The notes under the pieces are model-generated. The model was not told the origin of the DNA. It saw only the letters and a list, made by a program, of their open reading frames with translations, and ran no database searches. A stretch of 64,000 nt of DNA from a virus, in IMG/VR virus record IMGVR_UViG_3300028654_000009; one strand, given 5' to 3'. Position numbers and translations under genes: made by a program. This document shows positions 12,601-62,421 of the stretch, one piece after another. Within the stretch, counting starts at the first letter, position 1; the number at the start of each line of letters is the position of its first letter.

Positions 12601-14537
12601 GAGGCGTTGCTTGAATACACTATAGGTGCAGAACCGGAGGTGCAGCTGAAGTCGAGCAGGGCCCCTTGCTGTGTGCGATAGCTAGTCTGCTTGGTGCCAT
12701 TGGTGTTGCTAATCTGGTTTATCGGAGTCAACCACGCGATCGTGTTCCCAGCTCCACCAACGATGTAGTTACCGGTGATCCATACGTCCTTGTCTTGGTC
12801 TGCAACTAGCTGGTTTGGGATGTAGCGAATGGGAGAGAAGGACGTCCATAGAGTGTTGGCTGAAAGATAGGAGGTGCCGAAGGCGGTGTTGGTGCCTCCA
12901 TAAACCCCCGGGTCCACTGCGCCGCTAGAAGATGGTGCGACAAACGAATCTGTGGCTACAGAGTCGATAACGAACGAGCTTCCAATCTGAATCCCATGAT
13001 TGCCGGAGGTGGTTACGGTAGTCGTTCCGTCTGGATTGCGAACAATGTTACTGATTAAGACCTCTTGAGGATTGTGTACGTACGCCCCGCTTCCCTCACT
13101 GCGGTGAACAGACGTGGAGGTGGCAGCCACGTTGACGATAGCTTGGCCGCCGGCCTGCGTAAATAAAGAGTAAGAGGGGTTTTGGTAGATGGTGGACTTA
13201 AGCGGATGAAACAGGACCAAAGAGCGATACGCCAATTGGGACACAGTCTGAGGTGCGGCCTTGGGGTTGGTGATGTCGATGTATTGAGAGGAAGGTCCGA
13301 CGAAGACGTTTACGATAGGGAAGGAGCCCTGATTCACAGCACTGAATTCCGAACCCCGAATGACGACATAGTCTCCAACCACGGTAGAGCCGAGCGGGTA
13401 TGAAAACGAAGAGGAAGACGAAAGCCTGGCAGTGTTGTTGCCCAACAACGTGATGGTCCAGGTAGTGGCCGGAGGTGCGGCCGTACTGATAGTTGACAGT
13501 GCGCTGGGGAACTGAATGTCCGGCTGAGCCGTACCACCAGTGATTCGAATTGCCGACACCAGGCCTCGGCTGCCTGAGTAAACACGGAGCTTCTTGACGC
13601 CAGTGGTGGTATCCTGAGTAGAGGTGGCGTAAGCGTTCGCCCCGGCGTCTTCGAATGCTCGATTGATGACTGCGGCTACCTCGTCCACCAGGGCTCGGCG
13701 AATGATAGCGAAATCCGTTCGATTGAGGGTCACGTTTACTAGGTGCAGCTCGTCCACAAGGATTGACAGAGTCGTGCCATCGTTTAGCGTCATTGGCTCG
13801 TTGACGGCTGCGTCTGCATACGCCCGGACTGTCTCGGTCCCACAAAGGACCTCAAGAATGTCCGCCACGGCGCTGGAGGTGAGCTTCGAGCTGACGGTAG
13901 CAATAGCCAGCTTCCTGAAATCTTGGTCCGAAATCCCGATGTTGGCCGGGCGGGCGATTCCGTAGTCTGATGCCCTCTTGGTCAGATAGCTCCCAGAGGC
14001 GGAAGTCAAGAACAATTGGTCAAAGGCCGACTGAGCCATAGCTTTGACGCTGGCGTCGCCCGTGGCCAGGCCGGCGATGATGGCCTCCCAGGTGGGGCGG
14101 TTACGGTAAGCCGGATTCAGGAAGGAACGAAGGGTGTCCGCAGACGCCGCGTTCGTGGCCCCGCCCGGGATAGGTCCCTCTTTGACCGCAGAAATAGCGA
14201 ATGAAACCGTCAGGGGCGCTCCCGAGGCCGTCAAGGCGATGCCGCTGATCGAAGTGACAGTGCCGGCAACGGTCAGGGTGTAGCTACCGGGAGCCAAAAA
14301 AGCAAAAACGTCAATAGTTTCAAGATCTTGCGCGGTCGGACTGACACTGGAGACGGTGACTGGACCGCTGGGCCCCGTGATGGTATAGTTGGGCGCGTAG
14401 TCGGCCCGCACGGAATTGCTCCCTGAGACCGTTTTGGGCGTATCGGTGTACCTGACGCGAATAGTAGTCAATACGCCCGAGCTGGAATAGTTCAGGGGAA
14501 CGGCGGAATCTAGGCGGAAGTCCAAGGAAATGGCCAC
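9630..14537 (-). CDS. large baseplate wedge-like protein with kelch repeats and LamG-like domain
   Basis: LFLTSASGSYL...YGIARP...SDQDFRKL wedge motif; kelch blades; start reassigned to GTG 14537 by the AATCTT-N5 rule. Confidence 0.75.
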   Translation of the reverse strand: MAISLDFRLDSAVPLNYSSSGVLTTIRVRYTDTPKTVSGSNSVRADYAPNYTITGPSGPVTVSSVSPTAQDLETIDVFAFLAPGSYTLTVAGTVTSISGIALTASGAPLTVSFAISAVKEGPIPGGATNAASADTLRSFLNPAYRNRPTWEAIIAGLATGDASVKAMAQSAFDQLFLTSASGSYLTKRASDYGIARPANIGISDQDFRKLAIATVSSKLTSSAVADILEVLCGTETVRAYADAAVNEPMTLNDGTTLSILVDELHLVNVTLNRTDFAIIRRALVDEVAAVINRAFEDAGANAYATSTQDTTTGVKKLRVYSGSRGLVSAIRITGGTAQPDIQFPSALSTISTAAPPATTWTITLLGNNTARLSSSSSFSYPLGSTVVGDYVVIRGSEFSAVNQGSFPIVNVFVGPSSQYIDITNPKAAPQTVSQLAYRSLVLFHPLKSTIYQNPSYSLFTQAGGQAIVNVAATSTSVHRSEGSGAYVHNPQEVLISNIVRNPDGTTTVTTSGNHGIQIGSSFVIDSVATDSFVAPSSSGAVDPGVYGGTNTAFGTSYLSANTLWTSFSPIRYIPNQLVADQDKDVWITGNYIVGGAGNTIAWLTPINQISNTNGTKQTSYRTQQGALLDFSCTSGSAPIVYSSNASNNNSLYLIGGYSQLWNNLTATAVTTVTPLIVTKRPPLRTVLHANQLNNTQGILAAIPLWFLANPVSGDVLSISTGGTTRTYGFGTGGNVTVTIGGTAAITMSNLATAITGDGAAAWTAVNTTTLVNWVATSAVVVIEKTSGGGESPLRMWGLGALSAKTNIVAYAPGTSDPTQVKFDYSTVNSFITPLPFGDPLFGIAGFRLPKVSLSTNDIYSIIDNASFSSWQTTVWNNAAMNWLKSVVQDSTSLVTPAADQAVVQLGTKLLVTGGNTTFNLPTNAIQEGPGTWTQPGGSLITPRAGHSMVPLTSTTALVIGGRRPVSFATRTRLGITGWDFDEAFGAAILTGPVSVSVNGNARVPGKSGYGVNLSTSLMQNPAPGAAQTTLNGQLQLSYTLVGWMTNNQGVVFRNGAATFSSLATQTNLMFGVDTNDDKFFLYWMNSGGGILNKSSVTRTSLWGPSISNAFPVYHQFLIEVNAAGGVVYLYLDGKVIISVATSTPDGGLSGIWNFGMAPTASEIATGCPNTARFTGCIDAIGFGPGVQAVDSDIRGMYNEEVGVMYDNPTGVDLSPVGTVLNSCEIVSLSSNLNPTVPAGSMTYARYAFGCVKLPDGRVIVAGGIGYNPSTAPFPSNKSQRQLELNSSEIYDPATKIWTPLPNMADPHSYGLCEYVADENRVYVSGGFTSIRTEYLDVKTLRWHVLPAQMTAGTTEFHYFSRGTLLGGSYPVILGGARNNSGVYDVSGSTNYGFVMVRGGNRIMTGGLNGTHTALSGTGSNILVFKDSTHLAFTSVTGSGVVTPLDAVNEDDLKGPFMFDPKMGITVSSSLTTLTSRREKGGSYTFLDVASTANIPSTPGFLVLQFGHGNQIGPLPYQRTIGTNQIAIDGRYAFPATVEIGSSVSVVKSSEAVPENIDSLGAFYATAATAGRQAAQNLISDIAPAGIETALTVRYPGDRGLGGEGFPATGSSKISDQVYVWGGDTVDAEIKKAKGE

Positions 14538-14542: not shown

Positions 14543-14548
14543 AAGATT
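14543..14548 (-). promoter_or_regulatory. putative late promoter AATCTT
   Basis: AATCTT-gcttc-GTG(14537). Confidence 0.75.
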
Positions 14549-14553
14549 CGGCC

Positions 14554-14581
14554 TTGACAGATTGCCGAGGTGTGGTATCAA
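14554..14581 (+). promoter_or_regulatory. sigma70-like early promoter
   Basis: TTGACA-N16-TATCAA with TGn extension; 7 nt to ATG 14589. Confidence 0.7.
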
Positions 14582-14588: not shown

Positions 14589-15488
14589 ATGAGCAACATC
14601 GATTTGGAAGAGTTTGCGAAGACAATCAACAAAGCCATCGCCCGGGCCGAAAAGGTTGAGGCGGAGGTCTCTGCGCTGGTGGCCACAATCAAGGTCAATG
14701 AAGAGGATCACACCTTGATGGTCAAGCGAATTGAGGCGGATAAGCAAAAGGCCGAGCTGGAGCGGGACAAGGCAATCGAAGAACGAAAGAAGAACCACGC
14801 CGAACTTGTTGATGCGATGCGGCTTATCAAAGCTCGGGCCGAGAAGGCCGAGGGGGAGGCTTATGCCTACAAGCGTGACTTCGAGGCCGAGTTGGCCGGC
14901 AACAAGCATTATCGTGAGCGGTTCGGGGCACGCGACGACGAGACGATGGAAATGTTCTATGAGCGGCTAGTGCGGGAGCGCGACGAGGCGAAAGCGACGC
15001 TGGAAACCTATCGCTCCGTCGCTGGCGTCGCCGAAAGGACAGCCGAGGAATTGCGCGAGCGGTCTGTCGAGGCGAATGCCCGCCTCAAGAAGGTCGAGCG
15101 GGAACTCGCTGATGCGCGTGCTAGCCGTGATGGTTGGATTGAGGCGGAACGCAAGGCGCGACTGGAGCGCGACGAGACAGAGGAGGGCTCGGAGGAGTTC
15201 CGTAAGGGTTTCGCCAAAGCGCAGGAGGAACACTCGGTGAGCGAGGGCGTAATCGCTGACCTGGATCTCGGGCTTGCAGACCTGCGAGAGAACCAAATAC
15301 CGACCCTGATTGATCGGGTCAAGACCTTGGAGCGGCAGGTCGCGGATCACGACTGCGTGATGGTTAACGACTCCGAGCGGCACCGGCACGAAAAGCACGA
15401 GGCGCGCATCAATGCGCTGGAGTCGCTGCTACTGGACCCCAGCGATTGCAAGGGATGCCGGGGCCTGTGCCACGCGTGCGACCGATGA
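14589..15488 (+). CDS. coiled-coil protein with C-terminal CxxC-x3-CxxC
   Basis: Heptads; RVKTLE, RINALE; CKGCRGLCHAC. Confidence 0.85.
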   Translation: MSNIDLEEFAKTINKAIARAEKVEAEVSALVATIKVNEEDHTLMVKRIEADKQKAELERDKAIEERKKNHAELVDAMRLIKARAEKAEGEAYAYKRDFEAELAGNKHYRERFGARDDETMEMFYERLVRERDEAKATLETYRSVAGVAERTAEELRERSVEANARLKKVERELADARASRDGWIEAERKARLERDETEEGSEEFRKGFAKAQEEHSVSEGVIADLDLGLADLRENQIPTLIDRVKTLERQVADHDCVMVNDSERHRHEKHEARINALESLLLDPSDCKGCRGLCHACDR

Positions 15489-15649
15489 CCTCCCGCGAGC
15501 GAGCGGCGGCGGCCCTGGCGCAGGTCCAACTGGACCTTGCCGAGGCGAAGGAGCGCATCAAGGCGCTGGACACCCTGGTCCAGGCGATGGGCCAGCGGGT
15601 CAACGACCACGAGCGCCGGCTGCGCGCACGCGAAGGGAAGCCGAAATGA
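15485..15649 (+). CDS. chimeric small coiled-coil protein
   Basis: N-terminus matches gene at 209; C-terminus matches gene ending at 212. Confidence 0.7.
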   Translation: MTSRERAAAALAQVQLDLAEAKERIKALDTLVQAMGQRVNDHERRLRAREGKPK

Positions 15650-15800
15650 CATCTCGTGAGCGGGCGTCGTTCGCGCGGGCGGCGCGGTGGCTGGATCGAT
15701 GGCGCATCTGGCGTGCCTGGCGACGCACGCTGTGCTGCTGCGGAAACTGCCACAATGGGCGCGCGATATGTAGGCCACCTTCCCTCGACGGCGTGGCGAT
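15554..15800 (+). repeat. diverged copy of about 116-402
   Basis: 28-nt identity 186-213 / 15623-15650; mostly synonymous differences; shared cctcgacggcgtggcg end. Confidence 0.85.
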
Positions 15801-18336: not shown

Positions 18337-18343
18337 GGGAACA

Positions 18344-27434: not shown

Positions 27435-27440
27435 AAGATT
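27435..27440 (-). promoter_or_regulatory. putative late promoter AATCTT
   Basis: AATCTT-cggtg-GTG(27429). Confidence 0.75.
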
Positions 27441-27441
27441 A

Positions 27442-27496
27442 GAGCCCAGGTCGAGGGCGTCTACGGTTCGGTGACCTGGGCTCCTCGACCTGGGCT
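27442..27496. repeat. intergenic inverted repeat with two alternative partners
   Basis: 27443-27456 pairs with 27483-27496 (14 bp); 27442-27452 pairs with 27473-27483 (11 bp). Confidence 0.8.
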
Positions 27497-28945: not shown

Positions 28946-29446
28946 TTAAATATGCTGCGAGGGGACTTGGGGGACTGTCGTGTGGCCGTGGTCTACAGTG
29001 ACACAACGCAAGCCGAGCGTAGCACGTTCCTTACCTTCTGCCAAGGTCAGAGTGTTGAGGTCATAGTCCTTTTGTTCGGGAGAGCAAATCACGGCGATTG
29101 ATACTGTCGACTTGTCCTTCTTGCAGGCCAACACCTGGGCGAACAAATCGCTCTCAATCTGGCCTGTGCTGCAGGTCCACCCCAAAGCCGGGCTGACCGC
29201 TTTGATAATCCCGTTTTCGTACTGGTGCTTTTCTTCACCGTGTGCTAGGACAGTCACCTCGAAGGCCGATTCGAACCTCGGGTGTGTGTCGTCGTAGCTC
29301 AGGGGCTGAATGGTTGGCTGTTCCACGGGAAGCGGAACAACGGCTTTTACGGAACGCCCGTAAGGCGCAGCATAAGCCGCCAGGCCGAGGGTCACGCAGA
29401 AAGCAACAGCTGTGGTCAAAAGGAACTGGGCAAAGATTTTGAGCAT
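28946..29446 (-). CDS. secreted/membrane-anchored protein
   Basis: N-terminal hydrophobic signal; Cys residues; AGTCTT-N5-ATG. Confidence 0.75.
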   Translation of the reverse strand: MLKIFAQFLLTTAVAFCVTLGLAAYAAPYGRSVKAVVPLPVEQPTIQPLSYDDTHPRFESAFEVTVLAHGEEKHQYENGIIKAVSPALGWTCSTGQIESDLFAQVLACKKDKSTVSIAVICSPEQKDYDLNTLTLAEGKERATLGLRCVTVDHGHTTVPQVPSQHI

Positions 29447-29451
29447 ATTTG

Positions 29452-29457
29452 AAGACT
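29452..29457 (-). promoter_or_regulatory. variant late-type motif AGTCTT
   Basis: AGTCTT-caaat-ATG(29446). Confidence 0.45.
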
Positions 29458-29472
29458 ATCACATCTTTCTTC

Positions 29473-29500
29473 TTGACGCCAGACCAATCATAGCTATCAT
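29473..29500 (+). promoter_or_regulatory. sigma70-like early promoter
   Basis: TTGACG-N16-TATCAT; 7 nt to ATG 29508. Confidence 0.75.
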
Positions 29501-29507
29501 TGGGTTC

Positions 29508-29720
29508 ATGACCAAGAAGCAGCTGATTAACTTTTCGAAGGACCTTTACTCGGCCGTCCATGCCGACACGTCCCTGGACAGCGACTCGTTTTGTAGGATG
29601 GAGGCCGCAGCGTTCGAGTTTCGGGCCACTATCAATGAGCTGGTCTCGGGCGTTGTGACGCAAAGCAAGGCCAACGAGAACTTGACGTGCGTCCGAGAAC
29701 CAGGCCGCCGCCTTCATTAA
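29508..29720 (+). CDS. small hypothetical protein
   Basis: Leaderless position after early promoter. Confidence 0.7.
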   Translation: MTKKQLINFSKDLYSAVHADTSLDSDSFCRMEAAAFEFRATINELVSGVVTQSKANENLTCVREPGRRLH

Positions 29721-32777: not shown

Positions 32778-32783
32778 AAGATT
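32778..32783 (-). promoter_or_regulatory. putative late promoter AATCTT
   Basis: AATCTT-caatc-GTG(32772). Confidence 0.75.
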
Positions 32784-36097: not shown

Positions 36098-38875
36098 TTA
36101 ATTGCACCAGTGGGAAACGATGGTGACAAGGAACACTACGACACCGGCCGTGGTCACGGTCCCCATGTTTTTTGCACAAATAGCAAAGTGTTCGCCGGGC
36201 TGCACGAAGATATCCGGAGTCAAAATCTGGCCGCATTGGTTGGTAGGTATGAAACCTATCGCAGAGCCAGTAGGGATAGCGTGTAAGGACAAAGGCTTCC
36301 TTCGCGGTGCTTTTGTGTTAGCACTTTCGGCAGTAGCCAAAGAAGTGGCTGTGTGTCCCCAGGCGGCGGAGTAGTTGTATAGTACAGGGCCGCCAGTCAA
36401 AGCGGTGGTCACGATTGCTTCTATCTTGATAGAGTCGATAGCCAACGTTCTACCCGTTACTGTGCTGGAGCCGGCTGGGTTCGTGAAATCACAAACGATA
36501 CCGTCAGTACCTACAGTCAAGGTCGGTAGGCAGGCAAACTGTCCGCCCAAGCCGGTGCCCAAAGCTGCGGTGGTGTTGGTCATTGCGGCGCCGGCACCTG
36601 CCGCCTGGTTGTTGGCCAAGTTGGCCGTACTCCCCTGCGTCTGCCCACCAGCTCCTTGTGAACCCGTATTGCCATTCGAGCCCTGAGCCTCAACCCACGG
36701 CTGGTTTAGGTTCTGCCCAGCCATGTTAATGCCGTACTCGATGACCTTGAAGCTTAAAGCACCAGAAGCAGCTGAGCCGCCGATAGCGTGTCTGAAAGAG
36801 AATGGACACGAACCTGGACGGAACGGACGACCACTGGCGGCTGGCGAGTTAATTCGCCCCATCGACGTGTAGCCGTTACCGTCGCGCATGTCGAGCCAAA
36901 ACACACACACGTTCGGGTTGATATAAATCGATCCGTCGTACTCCACACCAGAGGTGGGAACAAAGTTGGCGCCGCCGAACACAGTTGCAAAAGCAGATGT
37001 CAGGGTTTCTGTGCCGGCGTTGTTGGCGACCCCGAACATGCCAGAAGAATTCAGACGGAAGTACGCCCCGTCGGTAGGAGCGTAAGGTGTCGAGGTGGGC
37101 CGCTGGAAGCAACCGAAGTCGATGGTGGTATTAGTGGCGTTCACCGTGCCCGTGAACATGAACTTAAAGTAGATGATCTGGGTACCCGAGGACCAGCAAG
37201 GGAAGAACCGCCGAGTAGAAAATGCAGCGCCGGTATTCGCAGTCGTGATCGATCCACCGTTGGTGGTCACTCCCGTACCTGGATAGGTCACCGTCATCGT
37301 GGTCGTATCGACCGTATGTTTACCTGTGTTTTGGGCGGTATAGCAGAAATTCTCCTGGTCGAACACGTTGTCAATGCTGACACGTGCGCTGAAGTCTTCG
37401 CTGGTTTCAGGAGAGAGAATCCACGGGAAGCCATTCGAGCTTCCGGCATCCGACTCAGTAAAGTTAGTAACCCTTAAAGCACCAGACTTGCCAGTATTGA
37501 GAGGGTTCGTTGTGCCCGGTGTGTAGGCGGGGTAGAATAGCGTGGCTGCCGCCTGATCGAGCCCACCAGACTGTCCAGCTGTAGTAGAGCCTTGAGCTAC
37601 TGCGCTTCCTCCACCTCCGCCAGCCGTAACGTTCACCCTCAGCGCTCCGGTGGTGTCTAACGAAAGCGGAGAGGTCTGGCCGCTGGTGTATGTAGGGCTG
37701 GCGGTGGCCACAGCTCCCTGCATAAGGGGACCCGACTGGCCAGAAGTGGTAGAGCCCTGGGCTAGAGGCAGCAGGGCCAACGTGGCCTGCGTAGCTATGG
37801 TGCCTATGGTGCCGATGTTGGCAGTGATGGTGCCAGAGACAGGTTGAGTAACGGCACTCCCGTCTACCTTCCATGCTACAGTGTTAGGCGTGTTGCCGGG
37901 TTGTACAGTCCAGGTGCCGGACTGAGAGGCCGGGATTGCCGACTGGTCAGACGCAATGGCTACGGCCAGCGAGGAGGCCATGACCTTCTGGCCGAGAGTG
38001 GCGGGGAGCTTCCCCGACATGGTGCTGACGGTAGCGTCCAGTGCCAATGAGCCTGAGGTGCCAATGTTGGCAGTGACAGTACCGGAGATGGTCGGGGTCC
38101 CGCTGATCGACACTGAGCCAGAGATCGGCTGGGTTACCGCACTACCGTCAACCTTCCAGGCTACGGTGTTGGCCGTGTTGCCGGGCTGGACTGTCCAGGT
38201 ACCGGACTGGGTTGCAGCTACGGTGCCCGATACAGGAACGGTACCCGAAATGGCGACTGTACCGCTGACGGGCTGTGTGGTGGCCGAGGCGTCTACCCTG
38301 AGAGCGCCAGCGGTCGTCAATGATAGCGGGGAGGTCTGGGCGGTGGTATAGGTGGGCGAACCGGTGGTGACTGCGCCTAGGGAAAGTCCGCCTTTTTGTC
38401 CGCTTGTCGTGGAGCCCTGAGAGACCTGAAGCCCAGTAACGGAGGCGTCTAGGGCGAGGGAGCCCGAGGTTCCAATGTTTGCCGTGACCGTGCCTGTGAC
38501 CGCCACGGAGCCCGTAATGGTAGTCGAGGTGAGGGAGACGGGGACCGTGTTGTTGGGGCTGATTGCCACCACGAGAGCTTTGTCGGTGGCGACAGCTGCT
38601 GTACTGGCGGCTTTGACAGTGGCAACGTTGGTGCCGTCAGTCAGCTTTGTCTGCTGCGTGCCACCGGTTAGGGTGGCGTCCAGGGCCAGGGTGCCGGCGG
38701 TCCCGATGTTAGCCGTAATCGTGCCAGAGACAGCCACAGGCGTCCCCGAGGCGATACCCTGAATGGTTATGACATCGGTCGAAGCGCTGCCGGCCGTCCC
38801 CAGGGCGGGCTGCTTGGCTGCGGTGGCTGCGCCCGTGGGGAGTACGCTCTGCTGCACCTGGGAAATTGTAAGCAC
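36098..38875 (-). CDS. repeat-rich fibre/appendage protein
   Basis: Repeats TANIGTxGxLALDA, AQGSTTSGQ, WKVDGSAVTQP; globular C-terminal half. Confidence 0.75.
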   Translation of the reverse strand: MLTISQVQQSVLPTGAATAAKQPALGTAGSASTDVITIQGIASGTPVAVSGTITANIGTAGTLALDATLTGGTQQTKLTDGTNVATVKAASTAAVATDKALVVAISPNNTVPVSLTSTTITGSVAVTGTVTANIGTSGSLALDASVTGLQVSQGSTTSGQKGGLSLGAVTTGSPTYTTAQTSPLSLTTAGALRVDASATTQPVSGTVAISGTVPVSGTVAATQSGTWTVQPGNTANTVAWKVDGSAVTQPISGSVSISGTPTISGTVTANIGTSGSLALDATVSTMSGKLPATLGQKVMASSLAVAIASDQSAIPASQSGTWTVQPGNTPNTVAWKVDGSAVTQPVSGTITANIGTIGTIATQATLALLPLAQGSTTSGQSGPLMQGAVATASPTYTSGQTSPLSLDTTGALRVNVTAGGGGGSAVAQGSTTAGQSGGLDQAAATLFYPAYTPGTTNPLNTGKSGALRVTNFTESDAGSSNGFPWILSPETSEDFSARVSIDNVFDQENFCYTAQNTGKHTVDTTTMTVTYPGTGVTTNGGSITTANTGAAFSTRRFFPCWSSGTQIIYFKFMFTGTVNATNTTIDFGCFQRPTSTPYAPTDGAYFRLNSSGMFGVANNAGTETLTSAFATVFGGANFVPTSGVEYDGSIYINPNVCVFWLDMRDGNGYTSMGRINSPAASGRPFRPGSCPFSFRHAIGGSAASGALSFKVIEYGINMAGQNLNQPWVEAQGSNGNTGSQGAGGQTQGSTANLANNQAAGAGAAMTNTTAALGTGLGGQFACLPTLTVGTDGIVCDFTNPAGSSTVTGRTLAIDSIKIEAIVTTALTGGPVLYNYSAAWGHTATSLATAESANTKAPRRKPLSLHAIPTGSAIGFIPTNQCGQILTPDIFVQPGEHFAICAKNMGTVTTAGVVVFLVTIVSHWCN

Positions 38876-38880
38876 ATCCC

Positions 38881-38886
38881 AAGATT
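38881..38886 (-). promoter_or_regulatory. putative late promoter AATCTT
   Basis: AATCTT-gggat-GTG(38875). Confidence 0.75.
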
Positions 38887-38890
38887 GCTC

Positions 38891-38918
38891 TTGACGGATT
38901 CCAAGGTTCGGCTATCAT
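38891..38918 (+). promoter_or_regulatory. sigma70-like early promoter
   Basis: TTGACG-N16-TATCAT; 7 nt to ATG 38926. Confidence 0.75.
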
Positions 38919-38925
38919 CGACTTT

Positions 38926-39180
38926 ATGGCAAAAATGACCATCAACTCGACCACCCCCGAAATCGAACAAGCCCGCGCTCACTACTGGAAAGTCATGAAC
39001 ATCTGGCTTGCCCTGAAGGAAGCGCACGAGAGGCTTACCGCCCAGCTTACAAAGGTTGACGGGCAGGTCCAGGCGGCCCTGGAGGAGCTGAAAGAGGCAC
39101 AGGCTGACCTGGCGTATTCGGCCGAGTACCAAGCAGCATGGGAGGCCGAGCTGGCGGCGAGAAAGGCGCGGGGAGAGTAA
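38926..39180 (+). CDS. small helical protein
   Basis: Follows early promoter. Confidence 0.8.
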   Translation: MAKMTINSTTPEIEQARAHYWKVMNIWLALKEAHERLTAQLTKVDGQVQAALEELKEAQADLAYSAEYQAAWEAELAARKARGE

Positions 39181-41928: not shown

Positions 41929-41934
41929 AAGATT
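41929..41934 (-). promoter_or_regulatory. putative late promoter AATCTT
   Basis: AATCTT-gactga-GTG(41922). Confidence 0.7.
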
Positions 41935-43395: not shown

Positions 43396-43401
43396 AAGAT
43401 T
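43396..43401 (-). promoter_or_regulatory. putative late promoter AATCTT
   Basis: AATCTT-gggaat-ATG(43389). Confidence 0.7.
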
Positions 43402-43630: not shown

Positions 43631-43796
43631 GCCTGGAAGATTCAGTCTTAGGGCGCATCAACTCGGCAATGCGGACCTTTGCTCGCTCAATCCTGCGGTC
43701 CATTTCCTCACGTGAACACCCACGTTCGAGGTCGCGCAGGAGACGTTCGGCGTCCTCCCCATACAGGGTCGGAGTCGCCACGATCGGGAGGCTCAT
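43599..43796 (-). CDS. small hypothetical protein
   Basis: PIVATPTLYGEDAERLL motif; ATGA overlap. Confidence 0.7.
   Translation of the reverse strand: MSLPIVATPTLYGEDAERLLRDLERGCSREEMDRRIERAKVRIAELMRPKTESSRHEAEDQSPGD
43637..43642 (-). promoter_or_regulatory. putative late promoter AATCTT
   Basis: AATCTT-ccaggc-ATG(43630). Confidence 0.6.
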
Positions 43797-44540: not shown

Positions 44541-44554
44541 AAGATTACAATCTA
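44541..44554. promoter_or_regulatory. divergent pair of late-type motifs (AATCTT on -, AATCTA on +)
   Basis: aAGATTacAATCTa; 6 nt to ATG 44534(-) and 5 nt to ATG 44560(+). Confidence 0.7.
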
Positions 44555-45947: not shown

Positions 45948-46330
45948 TTGCTTCCCTCATCCATCCGCAACAGCGCCCGAACAGTCCGGAGGTCGTCCAG
46001 GGTGACGCCCCTGGGGAAGCTATACCGGCAGCGGTCATAGTCCTTGCGGAAGCGTGACCATTCCTCGATCATCTCCTGCTCGGCTGCGTAAGCCTCCCGT
46101 GAGGGGTAGCCTCGTCCGTCGATTGGGTTGCCTTCTTTGCTGCTGAGGTTATCCATGCGGAGATTCCACTGCAACGGCCGGCCCACGAAGTCTGCCTTTT
46201 CCGCCTCTTCCACCGTCATGTAAATGCGACCCACCGCAACCACCCGCACGTCGAAGATGGACACCTCGCGCCAGCGGTGGGTGCGGACCACAATCAGCTT
46301 GTCGCCAACCGAATACTTTGCCTTGGACAT
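45944..46330 (-). CDS. beta-barrel phage protein
   Basis: SVGDKLIV...VVAVGRIYMTV; AAGGAG SD. Confidence 0.8.
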   Translation of the reverse strand: MSKAKYSVGDKLIVVRTHRWREVSIFDVRVVAVGRIYMTVEEAEKADFVGRPLQWNLRMDNLSSKEGNPIDGRGYPSREAYAAEQEMIEEWSRFRKDYDRCRYSFPRGVTLDDLRTVRALLRMDEGSK

Positions 46331-46348
46331 GTCAAACTCCTTAATGTG

Positions 46349-46376
46349 AAGATACCACAGCTCTGCGGGCCGTCAA
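46349..46376 (-). promoter_or_regulatory. sigma70-like early promoter
   Basis: TTGACG-N16-TATCTT with TGn extension. Confidence 0.75.
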
Positions 46377-46381
46377 GGCCG

Positions 46382-46387
46382 AATCTT
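46382..46387 (+). promoter_or_regulatory. putative late promoter AATCTT
   Basis: AATCTT-gggaaa-ATG(46394). Confidence 0.75.
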
Positions 46388-46393
46388 GGGAAA

Positions 46394-47308
46394 ATGGAAG
46401 TCATCCCGTCTTTTCACCAAACCCGCAAGGTGGGGGCCCACGAGGCCAACAACCGTGGCTTCGATAACACAATGCTCCGGGCGGGCGAGGTCAAGGCTAT
46501 CATTTATCCGGAAGACACCAACTCCAGGTCGAAAAAGTGGATTGAATACGACGTGTTAGTCTCTCACCGCGAGAACGGGACCAGCGTCACCAAGCTCTAT
46601 CATAATTGTATTCTAGCTAACGATTTGCAGGGCCTGGCAGACAGCTCGTTCAGGACACTGCGCGTAGACGTGCCTCCTCCAGGAAGCATCACAGACAGTT
46701 TCTCCCAGCTTAAGCCCGGGGACGGGTCGAGAGTTCTGCTCCTTTGCATCAACGGCGACACAGCTAACGCGGTGATTATTTCGGGGTTGCGGAACAGCTC
46801 GGAGGACGACCTGGGGGTCAAGGACCTGGGCCACCACCTGGACTATGAATTCAACGGCGTGCACCTGAGCATCCAGGATGACGGTAGCTTCTCGATTACG
46901 AAGAATGGGCCCACCACCCCTGCCGGCGATTTCGATAGCGCCAGGGGCACGGCAGAGGCCAATGGCACAGTTGTAGAGGTAGACGTAGACGGCTCTTTCC
47001 GGGTCTCGACCAAGGACAACGCCCAGTCGGTAGTCATCGACAACAAGGCCGGCACGATTACGGTATCGGGGGACCAGGACCTGACGCTTAACGCCGACAC
47101 GATTCACATCGGGACCAAGGCTACAGAGGCGGCCGTGCTGGGCAACACTCTAGTGTCGCTGCTAAGCAGCATGGTGGACGCGATTACTGCCATCACCCAT
47201 ATCTGCCCGGTGGGCACCTCGGGGCCGCCAGTGAACACGCCGGCTTTTAAGGCTTTACAGGCCCAGCTTCAGACGGCTCTGTCGTCGTTCGTGACCGTGG
47301 GAAAGTAA
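46394..47308 (+). CDS. baseplate central spike (gpV/gp5-like)
   Basis: OB-like N-terminus, beta-helix repeats, AVLGNTL...ITHICPVGTSGPP tip. Confidence 0.75.
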   Translation: MEVIPSFHQTRKVGAHEANNRGFDNTMLRAGEVKAIIYPEDTNSRSKKWIEYDVLVSHRENGTSVTKLYHNCILANDLQGLADSSFRTLRVDVPPPGSITDSFSQLKPGDGSRVLLLCINGDTANAVIISGLRNSSEDDLGVKDLGHHLDYEFNGVHLSIQDDGSFSITKNGPTTPAGDFDSARGTAEANGTVVEVDVDGSFRVSTKDNAQSVVIDNKAGTITVSGDQDLTLNADTIHIGTKATEAAVLGNTLVSLLSSMVDAITAITHICPVGTSGPPVNTPAFKALQAQLQTALSSFVTVGK

Positions 47309-49673: not shown

Positions 49674-50144
49674 TCAACCGAATTTCTTCTGATTCCGGCG
49701 GTGGCGGGCAAGGTGCCCCTTCTCCAGCTTGAGGAACTTTTTGGCCTCCTCGGGGGTCCTCAGGACTTGTGACGCAAAAGGCGAAAGCTCGTGAACCTTC
49801 TTGGCGCAGGCCTCGCCCAGCGAGAACCAGCCCTTCGGAAGCTCCTTCTCGGGGTCGAACCCGTAGAGAACCAGGCCCTCGGCGGTGTAGTCCGCCACGT
49901 GGGCGAACGCCTCCAGCTCTTCGTCCGTGATCCCGGCCGCATGAGCCTTGGGGCGGTCCATCATGAACAGGTCCATAAGCGTCATGCTGCTGGCCACCGG
50001 CGTTCCTACATACTGGGCGGGGAGAAACCACTCGTTGGCAATGATATTCTCCCAGTACGCGATATACCGGAGGTCGTTGGCGATCTCCTTGTCGTAGTCG
50101 ATTTTGTGGGACCAGGGGTTCTTCTTGCTGAATGAGTAGCTCAT
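49674..50144 (-). CDS. hypothetical protein
   Basis: Leaderless position after promoter. Confidence 0.75.
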   Translation of the reverse strand: MSYSFSKKNPWSHKIDYDKEIANDLRYIAYWENIIANEWFLPAQYVGTPVASSMTLMDLFMMDRPKAHAAGITDEELEAFAHVADYTAEGLVLYGFDPEKELPKGWFSLGEACAKKVHELSPFASQVLRTPEEAKKFLKLEKGHLARHRRNQKKFG

Positions 50145-50151
50145 GTCAATC

Positions 50152-50179
50152 ACTCTACCAGACTATCAAAAGGTGTCAA
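50152..50179 (-). promoter_or_regulatory. sigma70-like early promoter
   Basis: TTGACA-N16-TAGAGT; 50152-50181 identical to 59789-59818. Confidence 0.8.
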
Positions 50180-50184
50180 GGAAC

Positions 50185-50190
50185 AATCTT
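50185..50190 (+). promoter_or_regulatory. putative late promoter AATCTT
   Basis: AATCTT-agggt-ATG(50196). Confidence 0.75.
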
Positions 50191-50195
50191 AGGGT

Positions 50196-50636
50196 ATGCG
50201 TTTTCAGCCTGACGGATACTCTTGCGGCCCCGTGGCAGCAATGAACGTTATCCAGGCAATGACAGGGCGAAGACCCCACCGGGCGACCTTCCTGAAAGAC
50301 TCGGGGACCTCCAAAACCAACGGGACAACCCACTTCGGGCTCCAGCAAGCTATCGAGCGGGCCGGGTTCAAGCCGGTGGAGATCGCAGGGGCGTTTGATA
50401 CCGCTTACGAAACGCTCCAGGACTGCTTGGCGAAGGGCTGGGGAGCCGTTTTGCTGACCGAGCGAGGGAACCACTGGATAGCGGCTGTGGGTCGCCTGGG
50501 AGAGCGCGTAGCGGTGTTTGACAGCTTCCCCCACAGCGGCCACCCGGGCGTCCATGTGTATTCCAGGGCCCAGCTCCGAAGAGTCTGGACTCCCTGCGGC
50601 CCGGGTGGCCGCTACGCTATTGCCGTTACGCGCTAA
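50196..50636 (+). CDS. C39-like cysteine peptidase
   Basis: QPDGYSCGPVA, NGTT, NHWIA, AVFDS (Q-C-H-D). Confidence 0.8.
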   Translation: MRFQPDGYSCGPVAAMNVIQAMTGRRPHRATFLKDSGTSKTNGTTHFGLQQAIERAGFKPVEIAGAFDTAYETLQDCLAKGWGAVLLTERGNHWIAAVGRLGERVAVFDSFPHSGHPGVHVYSRAQLRRVWTPCGPGGRYAIAVTR

Positions 50637-55354: not shown

Positions 55355-55614
55355 ACTTTATTTTTAGGATTCAGCTTGTCTGCGATGTGCTGAGCTTCGG
55401 CGAACTTCTGGAACCAAACGGAGTAGGCCTCGAACGCCACCCTCCAGTTCGCCAGGGCGTTGTCGCGGGCAGCCTTGGCACGGTCCAATGCCTTGCTCCG
55501 AATCAGTCTTCGGTCCAGGACCGTGAAGTGCTTCATCGCGACCTCGGCCTCCTGGGCGGCCCGATTCAGATTCTCTTCGACGGTCTGCTGCTCGGTCTTT
55601 TGGGTGTAAGACAT
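55351..55614 (-). CDS. small helical-hairpin protein
   Basis: GGAGG SD. Confidence 0.75.
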   Translation of the reverse strand: MSYTQKTEQQTVEENLNRAAQEAEVAMKHFTVLDRRLIRSKALDRAKAARDNALANWRVAFEAYSVWFQKFAEAQHIADKLNPKNKV

Positions 55615-55631
55615 AACGACCTCCAGGAACA

Positions 55632-55659
55632 ATGATACTCGATTCCGGGCACTCGTCAA
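55632..55659 (-). promoter_or_regulatory. sigma70-like early promoter
   Basis: TTGACG-N16-TATCAT. Confidence 0.75.
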
Positions 55660-55663
55660 CACT

Positions 55664-55669
55664 AATCTT
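55664..55669 (+). promoter_or_regulatory. putative late promoter AATCTT
   Basis: AATCTT-cgggc-ATG(55675). Confidence 0.75.
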
Positions 55670-55674
55670 CGGGC

Positions 55675-56064
55675 ATGGCTAACACGGTTCAGTTTGAGGT
55701 ATCCATCAAAGGGGAAAACACCGGCAAGACTTACTCGGGAGTCTTCGAGGTGAAGACAAATCTCAGTCTTCGTGACTCACTGCGTGAAGACCAGGTGCGT
55801 CGAAACACCCTGGGGACCAATCCCGGGGAAGCCTCCGACTACGCGACATCGATCGCGGGCGCCCTGGCCTATCTGGCCGTGCGTATCGTCAATGCTCCTG
55901 ACTTCTGGGCCAAGTCCAACGGTGGCGTTGATCTGGAAGACGAAAATGTCCTAGTCGAAGTGAATAACGCCTGCGTAAAGGCCATCCAGGATGAGCGGGA
56001 TAAGGTCAAGGCCTTGGCCACAGACGCCCAGAAAGCGCTCGCCACTAAGGCCGCAGGGGCCTAA
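55675..56064 (+). CDS. probable tail assembly chaperone
   Basis: GETxxxYxGxF...LAVRIVNAPDFW...DLED; upstream of tape measure. Confidence 0.6.
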   Translation: MANTVQFEVSIKGENTGKTYSGVFEVKTNLSLRDSLREDQVRRNTLGTNPGEASDYATSIAGALAYLAVRIVNAPDFWAKSNGGVDLEDENVLVEVNNACVKAIQDERDKVKALATDAQKALATKAAGA

Positions 56065-58113: not shown

Positions 58114-58121
58114 GTGGTTCC

Positions 58122-58667: not shown

Positions 58668-58673
58668 GATTTA

Positions 58674-58701: not shown

Positions 58702-58704
58702 AGT

Positions 58705-59240: not shown

Positions 59241-59308
59241 TGGCGGCTCCTTGAGAGGGTTTTCGTTCGGGACAAGAATTACTCTACCAGAGTTTTGAGA
59301 GTCGTCAA
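59241..59308 (-). promoter_or_regulatory. early promoter plus repeated leader
   Basis: TTGACG-N16-TAGAGT; 59269-59310 matches 49628-49669 at 41/42 nt. Confidence 0.8.
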
Positions 59309-59311
59309 GAG

Positions 59312-59638
59312 CTATTTCTTCGCTGCCCGCTTGCCGGCGTCCAGAAGGTACTTGCCGGTCGCCGCGATCATCTTCTCGCGCTCGGTGAAGTATTGCGTCT
59401 TTTGAGACGCGCCGTAGTCCTCCCCGTTGCGGGTGGAATGGGTCACCAGGGTGAAGTAGTGGCCCGGAGCGAGCCTATACCCCCAGCTTTCATTCTCATC
59501 GGTCAGCTCTTCGGAAACCATGTCGCAGGTCCCCTGGGTAATGCGCACCCCGATCTGGCGCCCCTTGGCATCCAAGAACCCGAGGTCGAAGTAAGCCGTT
59601 GCCTTGTCGTCATTCTTCTTTACAACGATGGAAGTCAT
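59312..59638 (-). CDS. hypothetical protein (MTSI start)
   Basis: LDAKGRQIG...STRNGEDYGASQ; AAGGAG SD. Confidence 0.8.
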   Translation of the reverse strand: MTSIVVKKNDDKATAYFDLGFLDAKGRQIGVRITQGTCDMVSEELTDENESWGYRLAPGHYFTLVTHSTRNGEDYGASQKTQYFTEREKMIAATGKYLLDAGKRAAKK

Positions 59639-59667
59639 TGGCGGCTCCTTGAGAAGGTTTGAACAAA

Positions 59668-59781
59668 TGAGCGGGGCGGAGACCGGGGTGTCAATCGTAG
59701 GGCTGCAGTCCCTACAAGGTCCTCCGGGCGTTTAAGTCTCGGCTAACCGTTAGGCGCTTATCTTCATTTCCGCCCCGCTCA
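59668..59781 (-). ncRNA. candidate ~115-nt structured RNA or leader
   Basis: Perfect 13-bp end-to-end stem starting at the predicted TSS; internal GTAGGG/CCCTAC hairpin; followed by TTTGTT. Confidence 0.55.
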
Positions 59782-59788
59782 CAGAATT

Positions 59789-59816
59789 ACTCTACCAGAC
59801 TATCAAAAGGTGTCAA
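59789..59816 (-). promoter_or_regulatory. sigma70-like early promoter
   Basis: TTGACA-N16-TAGAGT with TGn extension. Confidence 0.8.
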
Positions 59817-59821
59817 GGCCG

Positions 59822-59827
59822 AATCTT
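59822..59827 (+). promoter_or_regulatory. putative late promoter AATCTT
   Basis: AATCTT-acttt-GTG(59833). Confidence 0.75.
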
Positions 59828-59832
59828 ACTTT

Positions 59833-62421
59833 GTGAGCGATCAGAGCAAAACAATCAAAATCGGCGTTGCGATGGACGAGCAGGCCGCCCGGCGCACCGA
59901 GCGGACCCTCAACGATTTGATGCGGGCAGCCGAGAAGACCGGCTCGGCCTTCGCGGGGCTCCAAAGGAGCATGAATGGCGGGAGCGGGGGCAGCTTCACG
60001 GCGAACAAGACCGTTCCGGGTGTGGCCGGCGGACCCGGTAGCCAGTTCGCCGCAAAGACGGCCACAGCTCGGGGAGGCATCTTCGGGAACCTCCTCGGCG
60101 TCCAGGACACGGGGGCCATGCGCGGGCTGGTTTCGGGGACTCAGTCGGCATTTTCTTCTATCGGGACCGGCGTCAAGTCGTTCGTAGACCGGGCAATAGG
60201 AGATATTGGTCGACTATCGAGGGCAATTGCTGGGCTGGGGGCGGCTGGTGGTGGAGCTGGTGGTGGAGCTGGTGGGGGCGGTGGCGGGGGCGGCAGCAGT
60301 GGGGGAACAGGAGGAGGCAGTGGGCGGGGGCGACGGGGGACGGGGGTCATAGGCGGAATCAATGCGGCGAATGCTCTGGTTGGCGGCAACGTTATGGGAT
60401 TCCTGCAGTCCGGGGCCGGTACTTTGGGTCTGGCTGGGGCAGCTCTCTACGGCGGTTTCAAGCTCGGAGAAACTGTCAATACAGTGGTCTCGGGCGAACG
60501 CCAGGCGCGCATCGACTACACCACCGGAGACCCCTTCGCTGTCATGAGCCGCAAGGTGGCCATGGCGCAGCCGTTCCTGCAAATGCACGGAGCTGTCCAA
60601 GGCCGTGACGTATCCTCAATGTACGCCTTTCAGCGAGCAATGGCCAACAAGGGATTGCAAAAATCCCTCAACCAGATTGACCTTCGTACCGAGAGAGAGA
60701 TGCGGGGGATCGGGGCCGGCACGGCAACGTACGGTATAAAAAGCGGTATCAATGCGCTGAGGGGCTACGTACCCTCCCACAATGGCGTCATGGACCTAGT
60801 GACCAGAGGGCTCAACCAGACCTGGAATACCCTCAGCGGAGGCATGTGGGGAAAGGCTGTTTCAGCCGGTGGCTCCTATCTCAACAATACTGAGGGAACC
60901 ACTTCGGAAACCAAATTCGACCTAGAGCGCAAAGCTGCCCTAAACAACGTGGACGCCCAGTCGGCTGCACAGATGTCGGCCGCTATGGCCGCAGAGCGCG
61001 CGTTGATGAACCCAGTAATCGCTGACCAAGCCAACAAGATTTACGGTGGGGCGATGGGGCGCGTAGGCGCTATGCGGTCGATGGGAATGTCAGCTGGAGA
61101 GGTCACCCGACGGGGGCCTAACGGCCAGACCTATACCACCTCCCGGTTTGAAGAGATGGAGGCCAAGCTCATGAAGGGTGGGTGGACACACGGAGACGCT
61201 TCTTCTAACTGGCAACAAACATTGGGAATCGGCGCTGGATATTCCAGGATCACAGGGGGCGGCGGCCCTAATCCAATGCTGGTTTCTGCGGGCATGGCCG
61301 GATTCACCAACGCGGCATCTTTGATTCGAGCCGGAGGGGCTATGACTGGTTCTGTGGCTGGAGCTGGGGCGATGTATCGCGCGGCGCAATCTTCTATGGG
61401 GACTGGCGGGCTCGACGTTGCAGTAGGAAGAGACCTGTTCGGTGAGGTGGCGTCTTCGGCTGCCGCTTCTGGCAACTACGGGGGCTCGTCGGCCGCACAG
61501 AATTACGCTTCTGCAGCTACCGGGTTGATAGGTGGGTCTGGAGCCGATGTTGGCGGCCAGCAGAGAATGGCAGGTCAACTCTCGGGAGGCATGAATGACT
61601 TCGGGGCATTCACGTCAGGGGCCAAAGCACCACTTTATAAGGCTACTTCTCTTATGGCTGCTATCGGAGCTATGGGCGGCTACTCTCTTGGGGCTGAAGA
61701 GCTTCGGCGCCTCGATCCGAAACAGCTCACCGCCATAGCCCGTGGAGAGAAGGGGGCTGTGTCCCCAGCTCTTGCTTCTTTGGGTATCACCCCAGAAATC
61801 GCCGCCAAGTATCTCAAGGCCTCCGGCTCTGCTCCTTTGATGGAGGTGAACGCTTCTCGTGTTGGAGGCTCGGCGGGGGCTGTCGTCGCCGCATACCAAA
61901 AGGAAGTATCGACAGGTGGTACTGTTCAGACCATGGTAGAAAAAGCGGTGGGTCCGAGAGGCCATAATGAGAAAGCCTCCGACTACGCCAAGCGACGCTG
62001 GGCAAAGGTCCAAGAGATTACTGGACAGCTTGGCGCCGCCGCTCACGCCGCAGGGCTTGCCACTTCACTTGAGAGCGGTGCGGGTATGTTTTTGGGGCAA
62101 TTTACTCAATCCAAAGGCTGGGCGTCCGCACTCCACGGCAAGGGCGTAGGTGCTGCGGCTCCGACTGGGCTCGAAAAGGAGGCGCTTACAAAAACAGCAG
62201 AAGTGGTGGCTGACGACGGCAAGCAGGCTAAGGGCGCAGCTGACATCATCAAGAACGTCGATCCTCTAGCTCTCAGGAAAAAGGCGGCTGGCAGTGTGGC
62301 TTTGCTCGGGTCCGAAAGCTATGGGGCTGGTATCAACGGCTCGGTAGGCGCCCTCATCGGGGCGCTACAGGCGTTCGCGAAGGAAATTTCGAAGGACACT
62401 GGCCTCCAGAAGGTGAAGTAA
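59833..62421 (+). CDS. tape measure-like protein
   Basis: 862 aa, A/G/M-rich helical; follows chaperones and precedes hub-like gene. Confidence 0.75.
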   Translation: MSDQSKTIKIGVAMDEQAARRTERTLNDLMRAAEKTGSAFAGLQRSMNGGSGGSFTANKTVPGVAGGPGSQFAAKTATARGGIFGNLLGVQDTGAMRGLVSGTQSAFSSIGTGVKSFVDRAIGDIGRLSRAIAGLGAAGGGAGGGAGGGGGGGGSSGGTGGGSGRGRRGTGVIGGINAANALVGGNVMGFLQSGAGTLGLAGAALYGGFKLGETVNTVVSGERQARIDYTTGDPFAVMSRKVAMAQPFLQMHGAVQGRDVSSMYAFQRAMANKGLQKSLNQIDLRTEREMRGIGAGTATYGIKSGINALRGYVPSHNGVMDLVTRGLNQTWNTLSGGMWGKAVSAGGSYLNNTEGTTSETKFDLERKAALNNVDAQSAAQMSAAMAAERALMNPVIADQANKIYGGAMGRVGAMRSMGMSAGEVTRRGPNGQTYTTSRFEEMEAKLMKGGWTHGDASSNWQQTLGIGAGYSRITGGGGPNPMLVSAGMAGFTNAASLIRAGGAMTGSVAGAGAMYRAAQSSMGTGGLDVAVGRDLFGEVASSAAASGNYGGSSAAQNYASAATGLIGGSGADVGGQQRMAGQLSGGMNDFGAFTSGAKAPLYKATSLMAAIGAMGGYSLGAEELRRLDPKQLTAIARGEKGAVSPALASLGITPEIAAKYLKASGSAPLMEVNASRVGGSAGAVVAAYQKEVSTGGTVQTMVEKAVGPRGHNEKASDYAKRRWAKVQEITGQLGAAAHAAGLATSLESGAGMFLGQFTQSKGWASALHGKGVGAAAPTGLEKEALTKTAEVVADDGKQAKGAADIIKNVDPLALRKKAAGSVALLGSESYGAGINGSVGALIGALQAFAKEISKDTGLQKVK

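Follow-up and report, generated by a model that had tools for sequence, protein, structure and literature searches.

A compact, repeatedly copied pairing of predicted early and late promoters in an uncultured relative of Myxococcus phage Mx1

Closely spaced and opposed early and late promoters are known from the A2b/A2c-A3 region of phage phi29, where the late promoter lacks a usable -35 box and has the early -35 box within its upstream region, so that occupancy of that stretch decides between early and late transcription (PMC3100819). The binding sites of the phi29 protein p4 overlap the -35 boxes of the early promoters that adjoin the late promoter A3, and the switch depends on p4, on p6 and on bent DNA of about 120 bp, while both promoters are read by host sigma A (PMC3100819). 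A second related arrangement is that of the PeSL (promoter-early stem-loop) cassettes of T4-type phages, which are short and repeated, carry strong sigma70-like early promoters paired with a terminator stem-loop, border small accessory gene blocks between conserved virion genes and serve as homologous exchange points by which these blocks are shuffled (PMC2839356, PMC4122927). Finally, Warman et al. described bidirectional and overlapping divergent promoters in bacteria, with a symmetric -10 region common to both directions, at which two polymerases compete for a short piece of DNA, and a strongly activated direction can repress the opposite one (PMC12825309).

We analysed a window of 64,000 nucleotides of DNA from an uncultured relative of Myxococcus phage Mx1. 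The motif GTCAA-N4/5-AATCTT was found exactly six times, against an expectation of 0.03, and six matches were reached in none of 100 shuffles; two matches lie on the minus strand (14543-14558 and 38881-38895) and four on the plus strand (46372-46387, 50175-50190, 55655-55669 and 59812-59827). The original prediction of six loci at which a -35 box lies 4-5 bp from an opposed late motif was thus confirmed, as was the exact string common to three of them, the 16-mer GTCAAGGCCGAATCTT. All six sites are divergent junctions, with a predicted strong sigma70-type promoter on one strand and AATCTT on the other. The further remark that the arrangement was not recognised as a described one goes too far, since close precedents exist in the phi29 A2b/A3 region and in the PeSL cassettes of T4-type phages. 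Compared with phi29, however, only 4-5 nt separate the two elements of a module, an evident regulator site is missing, and a phage sigma factor probably recognises the late box. As in the PeSL cassettes, a strong early promoter is repeated at the borders of accessory blocks, but here it is paired with a divergent late promoter and not with a terminator: terminator-like sites were found at none of the modules and were not enriched in general (16 versus 19 expected).

On the early side, every GTCAA reads on the opposite strand as a -35 box TTGAC(A/G), followed in all six modules by a spacer of 16 nt and a -10 box (TATCAT, TATCTT or TAGAGT in five modules, TATCAA in one), which is preceded by an extended -10 TG in 4/6. 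Sigma70-like sites are overrepresented in the window (17 versus 5.5 expected) and every strong one is directed into one of the islets of small early-type genes. Early genes with the layout -10 box, 7 nt, ATG suggest that leaderless starts are normal for this phage; the folding of a conserved early 5'UTR cassette was no better than that of shuffles. Within the islets, at least seven strong early promoters lack a late-box partner, and upstream of the -35 box of such unpaired promoters runs of AAGAAAT or AAAAAT are seen (e.g. at 59308, 39608, 49667 and 55354). These runs occupy the place at which the paired promoters carry the complement of the late box, AAGATT, at -41 to -46, so that the late box might have a second use as an UP-like element for the alpha subunits of the host polymerase. 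We give this idea little credence, given the poor match to the UP consensus and the small sample.

On the late side, each AATCTT lies 5-6 nt ahead of the ATG or GTG start codon of a long ORF, and the late boxes of the modules precede tail or baseplate genes. Throughout the window AATCTT is the commonest hexamer at 5-6 nt before gene starts (14 starts, compared to six for the best Shine-Dalgarno hexamer at the same position), and the genes behind late boxes are homologous to the baseplate J, kelch, baseplate assembly and neighbouring proteins of Mx1. An interpretation of AATCTT as a translation signal that replaces the Shine-Dalgarno sequence was rejected, because the box precedes leaders of 26 and 36 nt with their own Shine-Dalgarno sequence in Mx1 and because the early genes show the same layout of -10 box, 7 nt and ATG. 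The boxes correspond to the single-box late promoter of the Mx1 group, (n)AATCTT a few nt before the starts of virion genes and without a -35 partner, which is analogous to the gp55-dependent late promoters of T4. The late box would then be a -10-like element, probably read by a phage sigma factor, from which a leaderless mRNA would start at the start codon of the tail or baseplate gene. The annotated sigma factor of Mx1, encoded at 2071-3078 of OR576727.2, showed a weak match to region 2 (E = 9e-4) and no match to region 4; the sigma gene lies outside the window.

Module 1 (14535..14591) connects a kelch-repeat tail protein gene, homologous to Mx1 135800 (GTG 14537, minus strand; late box 14543-14548), via the spacer GGCCG to a plus-strand early promoter with TTGACA at 14554-14559, TATCAA at 14576-14581 and a predicted leaderless ATG at 14589. 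Module 2 (38873..38928) has the same orientation, with the gene of a 925-aa protein (GTG 38875, minus strand), its late box at 38881-38886, the spacer GAGC, TTGACG at 38891-38896, TATCAT at 38913-38918 and a putative leaderless ATG at 38926 (plus strand). The other four modules are oriented the other way around. Module 3 (46328..46396) has an early promoter on the minus strand (TTGACG 46371-46376, TATCTT 46349-46354) before a ProQ-like gene that has a leader with a Shine-Dalgarno sequence (ATG 46330), the spacer GGCCG, and a late box at 46382-46387 on the plus strand before the gene of a 304-aa protein (ATG 46394) homologous to Mx1 79561. In module 4 (50142..50198), TTGACA (50174-50179) and TAGAGT (50152-50157) precede an apparently leaderless ATG at 50144 on the minus strand, and the spacer GGAAC separates them from the plus-strand late box (50185-50190) of a 146-aa protein (ATG 50196). 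The junction of module 5 (55612..55677), which is orthologous to Mx1 74261, consists of a minus-strand early promoter (TTGACG 55654-55659, TATCAT 55632-55637) with a Shine-Dalgarno leader before ATG 55614, the spacer CACT and a plus-strand late box (55664-55669) before a 129-aa protein (ATG 55675). Module 6 (59789..59835) combines TTGACA (59811-59816) and TAGAGT (59789-59794) on the minus strand with the spacer GGCCG, a plus-strand late box at 59822-59827 and the gene of an 862-aa protein (GTG 59833); its early leader would be long because the first early gene on that side starts only at 59638.

Late boxes also occur outside these modules, and in fact eight of the 14 in the window have no GTCAA. 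Solo boxes, all on the minus strand, were found before the baseplate J gene (27435-27440; GTG 27432), an 864-aa baseplate assembly protein (32778..32783), a 665-aa protein (41929..41934), two small genes (43396..43401, ATG 43390; 43637..43642, ATG 43630), a 125-aa gene (44541..44546, ATG 44534) and a 323-aa gene (9198..9203, ATG 9192), where the box coincides in part with the TAA stop codon of the preceding gene. The box at 27435, in the minus-strand feature 27435..27496, is preceded by a strong hairpin (-34.7 kcal/mol, z = -5.7). A degenerate module at 7864..7951, with the sequence GTCTAGCACGAATCTT, has a minus-strand late box (7872-7877) before a 745-aa tail-fibre-like protein (ATG 7866) and GTCTA (7883-7887) in place of GTCAA; the opposite gene at 7949 (plus strand) has a Shine-Dalgarno sequence, and a recognisable sigma70 -10 box was not found there. 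A looser divergent junction of the form GTCAA-N15-AGTCTT was identified at 29444..29510, where a variant box AGTCTT (29452-29457, minus strand) with GTCAA 15 nt upstream precedes ATG 29446, and TTGACG (29473-29478) and TATCAT (29495-29500) on the plus strand precede a putative leaderless ATG at 29508.

The abundance of boxes without GTCAA bears directly on the prediction that GTCAA could belong to the late promoter, as the upstream element of a bipartite signal, with an incidental sigma70-like match on the opposite strand. The constant spacing in six copies would fit such a signal, as would the GTAGA or GTCTA found at a similar distance from some solo boxes. However, 72 late boxes of relatives and Mx1 contain no information upstream of -3, and information only at positions -3 to -1 (cGC); moreover, every GTCAA has a good -10 box 16 nt away and a gene that faces outward. 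We consider this reading close to refuted.

The geometry of the junctions is compact. The predicted transcription starts of the paired promoters are 50-52 bp apart in the six modules, relative to the late promoter the early -35 box is located at about -17 to -22, relative to the early promoter the late box is located at -41 to -46, and in three junctions the gap from start codon to start codon is 50-51 bp. With starts at this distance two polymerase complexes should exclude each other, and mutual exclusion at the predicted overlapping footprints is likely. The bacterial bidirectional promoters mentioned above reportedly have starts about 18 bp apart. The modules, in contrast, consist of separate elements that belong to different promoter classes, with starts about 51 bp apart, and a pseudo-symmetric common -10 region with closely spaced starts is absent from all six.

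It was proposed that the footprint overlap makes the module a steric early-to-late switch. In such a dedicated toggle the distance of 4-5 nt would be selected, the late holoenzyme at AATCTT and the sigma70 holoenzyme at TTGAC would evict or block each other, and every module would be a built-in device that turns early genes off and late genes on. The distance between the starts and the 4-5 nt spacing in all six modules fit this idea, GTCAA at 2-6 nt is enriched at the late boxes of relatives (4/72 versus about 0.35 expected), and at overlapping divergent promoters strong activation in one direction does repress the opposite one through polymerase competition (PMC12825309). The geometry is right; the distribution of the elements speaks against selection as a switch. 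Most early promoters (at least seven strong ones in the islets) and eight of the 14 late boxes are unpaired, so that the switch must operate elsewhere without the module. The spacing in related phages, proposed as a check, turned out to vary from 2 to 19 nt: the distance between -35 and late box is 2, 4, 4, 4 and 11 nt in divergent junctions of relatives, and in Mx1 it is 5 nt at 74261, 10 nt at 13011 and 19 nt at 121393. Equivalent junctions, including the looser one in the window, show spacings of 10, 11, 15 and 19 nt. Mx1 moreover has late boxes whose partner is another type of promoter, a GATC box, at 10 and 14 nt. Across the family the spacing is tight, yet not fixed; some selection for tight spacing may act in this lineage, in which all six canonical junctions have 4-5 nt. 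We regard a dedicated toggle as unlikely, and take the exclusion to be a by-product, which may help to silence the promoter at the head of an islet late in infection, rather than the general early-to-late switch of the phage.

The conservation of the core sequence requires separate consideration. The spacer GGCCG occurs in three modules and GGCCT in the single Mx1 copy, at the orthologous junction, where 15 of 16 positions match GTCAAGGCCGAATCTT; by our own arithmetic the chance of this is roughly 1e-5. The identical GGCCG spacers exceed the needs of both promoter boxes, and copying explains them only if it was recent or if something keeps the core uniform; the 16-mer as a whole may therefore have a function. 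The core could be the operator of a phage switch protein that represses the early promoter through occupation of its -35 box while activating the late promoter next to it, like p4, whose phi29 sites overlap early -35 boxes beside a late A3 promoter with a poor -35 (PMC3100819). The identity of the core, spacer included, in three copies and the Mx1 match agree with an operator. Against it, the spacers of the remaining three modules differ throughout, the core has neither dyad nor direct-repeat symmetry, no conserved sequence lies upstream of the solo late boxes, and a metagenome scan for the core returned chance-like matches only, which together make an operator very unlikely. A hairpin interpretation of the core (GGCC ... 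GGCC) was dropped as well, being inconsistent across copies. Another conceivable reading is that the core is a selected two-way element. It would then be both an obligate either/or site, bound early by region 4 of host sigma70 and late by the phage late sigma, and a homology patch through which islets and late genes are exchanged and inverted without any gene losing its own class of promoter. If true, this would explain the scrambling of a late operon that is collinear in about 55 relatives; for the two halves jointly, we consider it quite improbable.

In these ca. 55 related loci the late genes that they hold are collinear on one strand, in the order p129-p167-p526-p304-bp864-J-kelch-v142-tf745. 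In the window this late block has the reverse orientation and is divided by early islets on the opposite strand, roughly eight in number, six of which are headed by a module. Sequence comparison also shows the modules to be mosaics of one another: the early half of 14543 matches that of 46372 (38 nt, 84%), its late half matches that of 59812 (25 nt, 92%), and the early half of 59812 matches that of 50175 (44 nt, 91%). The identical 16-mer core joins different early halves to different late halves. Of the three interpretations offered originally, that of a portable unit by which early-gene islets are placed between structural genes is the best supported, by the position of modules at the heads of six islets, the mosaicism and the synteny; exchange between modules is suggested here by the mosaicism, for PeSL cassettes by comparison of close relatives or by mini-circles.

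We favour, with a probability of roughly 55%, the reading that two independent promoters are packed edge to edge and were spread by recombination. Each site would be the complete control region of one divergent gene pair, with a strong host-sigma70-type promoter (TTGACR, 16 nt, TAnnnT, frequently with an extended -10 TG) at the head of an islet of small early-type genes and the Mx1-group single box on the other side. The modules occur where opposite-strand islets break the late block, and each interrupted late unit would need its own late box for restart. The 4-5 nt between GTCAA and AATCTT would simply be the closest packing of both elements, and an origin of the junctions by copying and recombination among themselves would account for the uniform spacing within the genome. 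The junction is thus a compact, repeatedly copied pairing of ordinary promoters and not a new kind of promoter; neither a new promoter class nor a regulator is implied. With such an arrangement a large lytic phage could intersperse early genes read by the host among its own late genes while spending hardly any DNA, as 50-51 bp hold both promoters and both predicted leaderless starts, and the copied junctions suggest that the genome can be rearranged with every gene keeping a promoter of the right class. Mx1, a phage that can be grown on Myxococcus xanthus, has a nearly identical junction (74261) at which polymerase competition is directly testable.

The nearest relatives share about 50% protein identity with this phage, a distance too great for recombination events to be caught. 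A search of sequencing runs for this phage listed DNA runs and no RNA run. Four of the DNA runs, from rhizosphere, that covered 44001-64000 were near-clonal, with a few SNPs, none of them within a module; joints were not seen in this region, which provides no evidence for or against islet mobility. Pfam and PHROG searches found no homing endonuclease or recombinase among the islet proteins. Megablast of 20 kb of the window against a phage collection gave no match. The exact 16-mer had 13 single matches in IMG/VR, which is about chance by estimate, and the 16-mer followed by a start codon had 23 matches in JGI metagenomes, none of which combined a sigma70 partner with a long ORF or resembled Mx1-type DNA. 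As single queries, the 862-aa and baseplate J proteins retrieved no viral loci; these were recovered with alignments that included the Mx1 proteins. The 862-aa protein has its two closest homologues, P0001 and P0002 (40% identity), on Logan contigs. The sequencing runs that carry DNA of this phage are rhizosphere metagenomes.

The divergent junction GTCAA-N4/5-AATCTT was found six times in the window (at 14543, 38881, 46372, 50175, 55655 and 59812), where 0.03 occurrences were expected, and the 16-mer GTCAAGGCCGAATCTT is identical in three of the six, as the original prediction had it. The original interpretation is partly supported. We consider these modules to be two ordinary promoters of different classes, placed edge to edge at the heads of islets (blocks of small early-type genes on the strand opposite the late genes) and multiplied by recombination.

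On its opposite strand each GTCAA forms a -35 box TTGAC(A/G); the -10 box, 16 nt further on, is TATCAT, TATCTT, TAGAGT or TATCAA, and four of the six modules have an extended -10 TG. Sigma70-like sites are enriched at 44-64 kb (17 versus 5.5 in shuffles), and the strong ones there are all directed into small-gene blocks. The early starts at 14589, 38926 and 50144 are leaderless, 7 nt past the -10 box, and those at 46330 and 55614 have a leader of 17-18 nt with an SD. The start codon lies 6-7 nt past the -10 box in the early-type genes at 14589, 29508, 38926, 39642 and 50144. Early promoters without a late partner contain A-rich runs (AAGAAAT, AAAAAT or AAAATT) around -40 to -50, as seen in the 21-bp stretches that precede the -35 boxes at 59308, 58701, 55354, 49667, 48471 and 39608; in the modules this position is taken by AAGATT, the late box reversed, and either may serve as an UP-like element. 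Copies of a cassette of some 70 nt (48400-48471, 49590-49672 and 59229-59320, minus strand) head three different small islet genes; the cassette comprises an early promoter (TTGACG, 16 nt, TAGAGT) followed by a conserved 5'UTR with AGGAGAATCCCATG at its end, a leader that folded no better than shuffles.

The other element of the module, AATCTT, sits 5-6 nt ahead of the start codon (ATG or GTG) of a long ORF. Over the whole window it is the top hexamer at 5-6 nt before starts (14 gene starts versus 6 for the best SD hexamer), and the genes behind it encode baseplate J, a baseplate assembly protein, a kelch-repeat tail protein, a tail-fibre-like protein and their neighbours, which makes the label 'late' reasonable. 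We read AATCTT, from its sequence context, as a -10-like promoter element that would start leaderless mRNAs, because the layout (a -10-like box, 5-7 nt, the start codon) is common to the late genes and the leaderless early genes, and because the -10 element of gene 39642, downstream of the -35 box TTGACA, is TAATCT and thus nearly identical to the late box. Leaderless mRNAs appear to be used by both temporal classes of the phage. A ribosome-binding or translation signal was rejected, since in the related Myxococcus phage Mx1 AATCTT also precedes leaders of 26 and 36 nt that carry their own SD, which fits a promoter. The annotated sigma factor of Mx1 shows a weak match to region 2 and none to region 4, compatible with a phage sigma lacking region 4, albeit weakly. 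Directly upstream of the baseplate J late box lies a strong hairpin (27441-27496, minus strand; -34.7 kcal/mol, z = -5.7), which looks like a terminator followed by a late promoter; a weaker hairpin ahead of the late box at 9198 was no better than shuffles.

With the early start counted 7 nt past the -10 box and the late start set at the start codon, the distance between predicted starts is 50-52 bp in every module, and 50-51 bp separate the two start codons in three of them. Numbered from the late start, the early -35 box occupies about -17 to -22; numbered from the early start, the late box occupies -41 to -46. An ordinary polymerase footprint spans roughly -55 to +20, so two polymerase complexes should not be able to coexist at this distance; the proposed overlap of footprints is sound, and on these predicted positions polymerase exclusion at the modules is probable. 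The module cannot be the general early-to-late switch of the phage, since eight late boxes, as well as at least seven strong early promoters within islets, stand without a partner. At overlapping divergent promoters competition takes effect only under strong activation of one of the two directions (Warman et al., PMC12825309).

The window originates from an uncultured myovirus-like phage in rhizosphere metagenomes. In the phage collection the sole match of its baseplate J (2338 aa) was Mx1 (OR576727.2, 38% identity), and ten window proteins had tblastn hits in Mx1. Using alignments of window and Mx1 proteins we found 79 related IMG/VR loci (L018-L096), of which L018 is closest (52% identity). 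The suggestion that GTCAA is part of the late promoter was rejected: 8 of the window's 14 late boxes lack it, including the boxes at 27435 (baseplate J) and 32778 (baseplate assembly gene), and in a set of 72 distinct AATCTT boxes linked to starts in relatives and Mx1, information is confined to -3 to -1 (cGC), with none at -4 to -30. Close spacing is enriched: 4 of the 72 late boxes have GTCAA 2-6 nt away, versus about 0.35 expected. There is no one preferred value: the -35 box and the late box are 2 (L087), 4 (L075, L091 and L041) or 11 nt (L052) apart at verified divergent junctions of relatives and 5, 10 or 19 nt apart in Mx1, a range of 2-19 nt, and a fixed spacing is found only in the window genome. 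At the orthologous junction before the 129-aa gene the module is present only in the window and Mx1. The window junction 29446/29508 has GTCAA-N15 and a variant box AGTCTT, and a decayed copy of the module lies at 7872. In Mx1 (L016) the late box has a second kind of partner, a compact promoter of another type (the GATC box), at 29927-30010 and 10982-11047 (14 and 10 nt from the GATC word, respectively, which in both pairs lies 18 nt ahead of the ATG of the opposite gene). Tight back-to-back packing of promoters is therefore a general trait of the group, not limited to one element pair.

In about 55 related loci, including L018, the late genes present have one order on one strand: p129, p167, (p862), p526, p304, baseplate assembly, baseplate J, kelch, v142 and tail fibre. 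The late block of the window consists of two halves in opposite orientations, broken by opposite-strand small-gene islets on the left (7949-8224, 14589-20253, 29508-30175 and 38926-39911) and on the right (47.2-50.1, 50.7-55.6 and 56.5-59.6 kb, with an early stretch ending at 46330). Every late gene facing an islet has a late box, and canonical modules make up six of the eight islet-facing junctions. A few of these boundaries also bear islets in Mx1 and in some relatives, with similar junctions (e.g. 6 kb of NAD-metabolism genes before baseplate J in Mx1). The module fits best as the form that a junction takes where the head of an early islet meets that of a restarted late unit. The portable islet unit is thereby the best fit of the three readings originally offered, although no exchange was caught: in four metagenome runs the populations were clonal and no joints were found. 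Late genes and converging islet genes overlap at their 3' ends (47247-47308 and 56534-56567); no terminator-like site was found at these overlaps, so late transcription may run antisense through islets.

The modules are related piecewise. An early half is common to 14543 and 46372 (38 nt, 84%) and another to 50175 and 59812 (44 nt, 91%), the core and late half up to the GTG are common to 14543 and 59812 (25 nt, 92%), and the late halves of 46372 and 55655 resemble the solo late boxes 43396 and 27435 (pairs I6 and I15). Pairings left of the core differ from those right of it, the pattern expected from crossovers within the core, and because the modules occur in both orientations, exchange between them could also have yielded the inversion of the late block. 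The spacer GGCCG is identical in three modules and reads GGCCT at the orthologous junction of Mx1, for which we estimate a chance of the order of 1e-5 and which exceeds what two boxes need. The shared GGCCG spacers are most simply explained by recent copying or gene conversion. This excess would also suit a protein site over the 16-mer core, conceivable by analogy with phi29, where the sites of p4 extend over early -35 boxes that neighbour the late promoter A3, itself devoid of a -35 box (PMC3100819), but the core lacks symmetry and the other three modules differ. In their piecewise relatedness the modules resemble PeSL cassettes, through which T4-type phages shuffle accessory genes (PMC2839356, PMC4122927); they lack the terminator stem-loop, however, and are therefore not PeSLs. 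The arrangement is a variant of known ones, namely the early/late divergent region of phi29, PeSL-type cassettes and competing divergent promoters.

Other repeats in the window include a 255-nt unit in three tandem copies (67-71% identity) inside the gene of a 665-aa late protein (40727-41536), four 61-nt repeats inside a 925-aa gene (37782-38733), and paralogous genes at 116-251 and 15553-15688, each beginning with MTSRERA.
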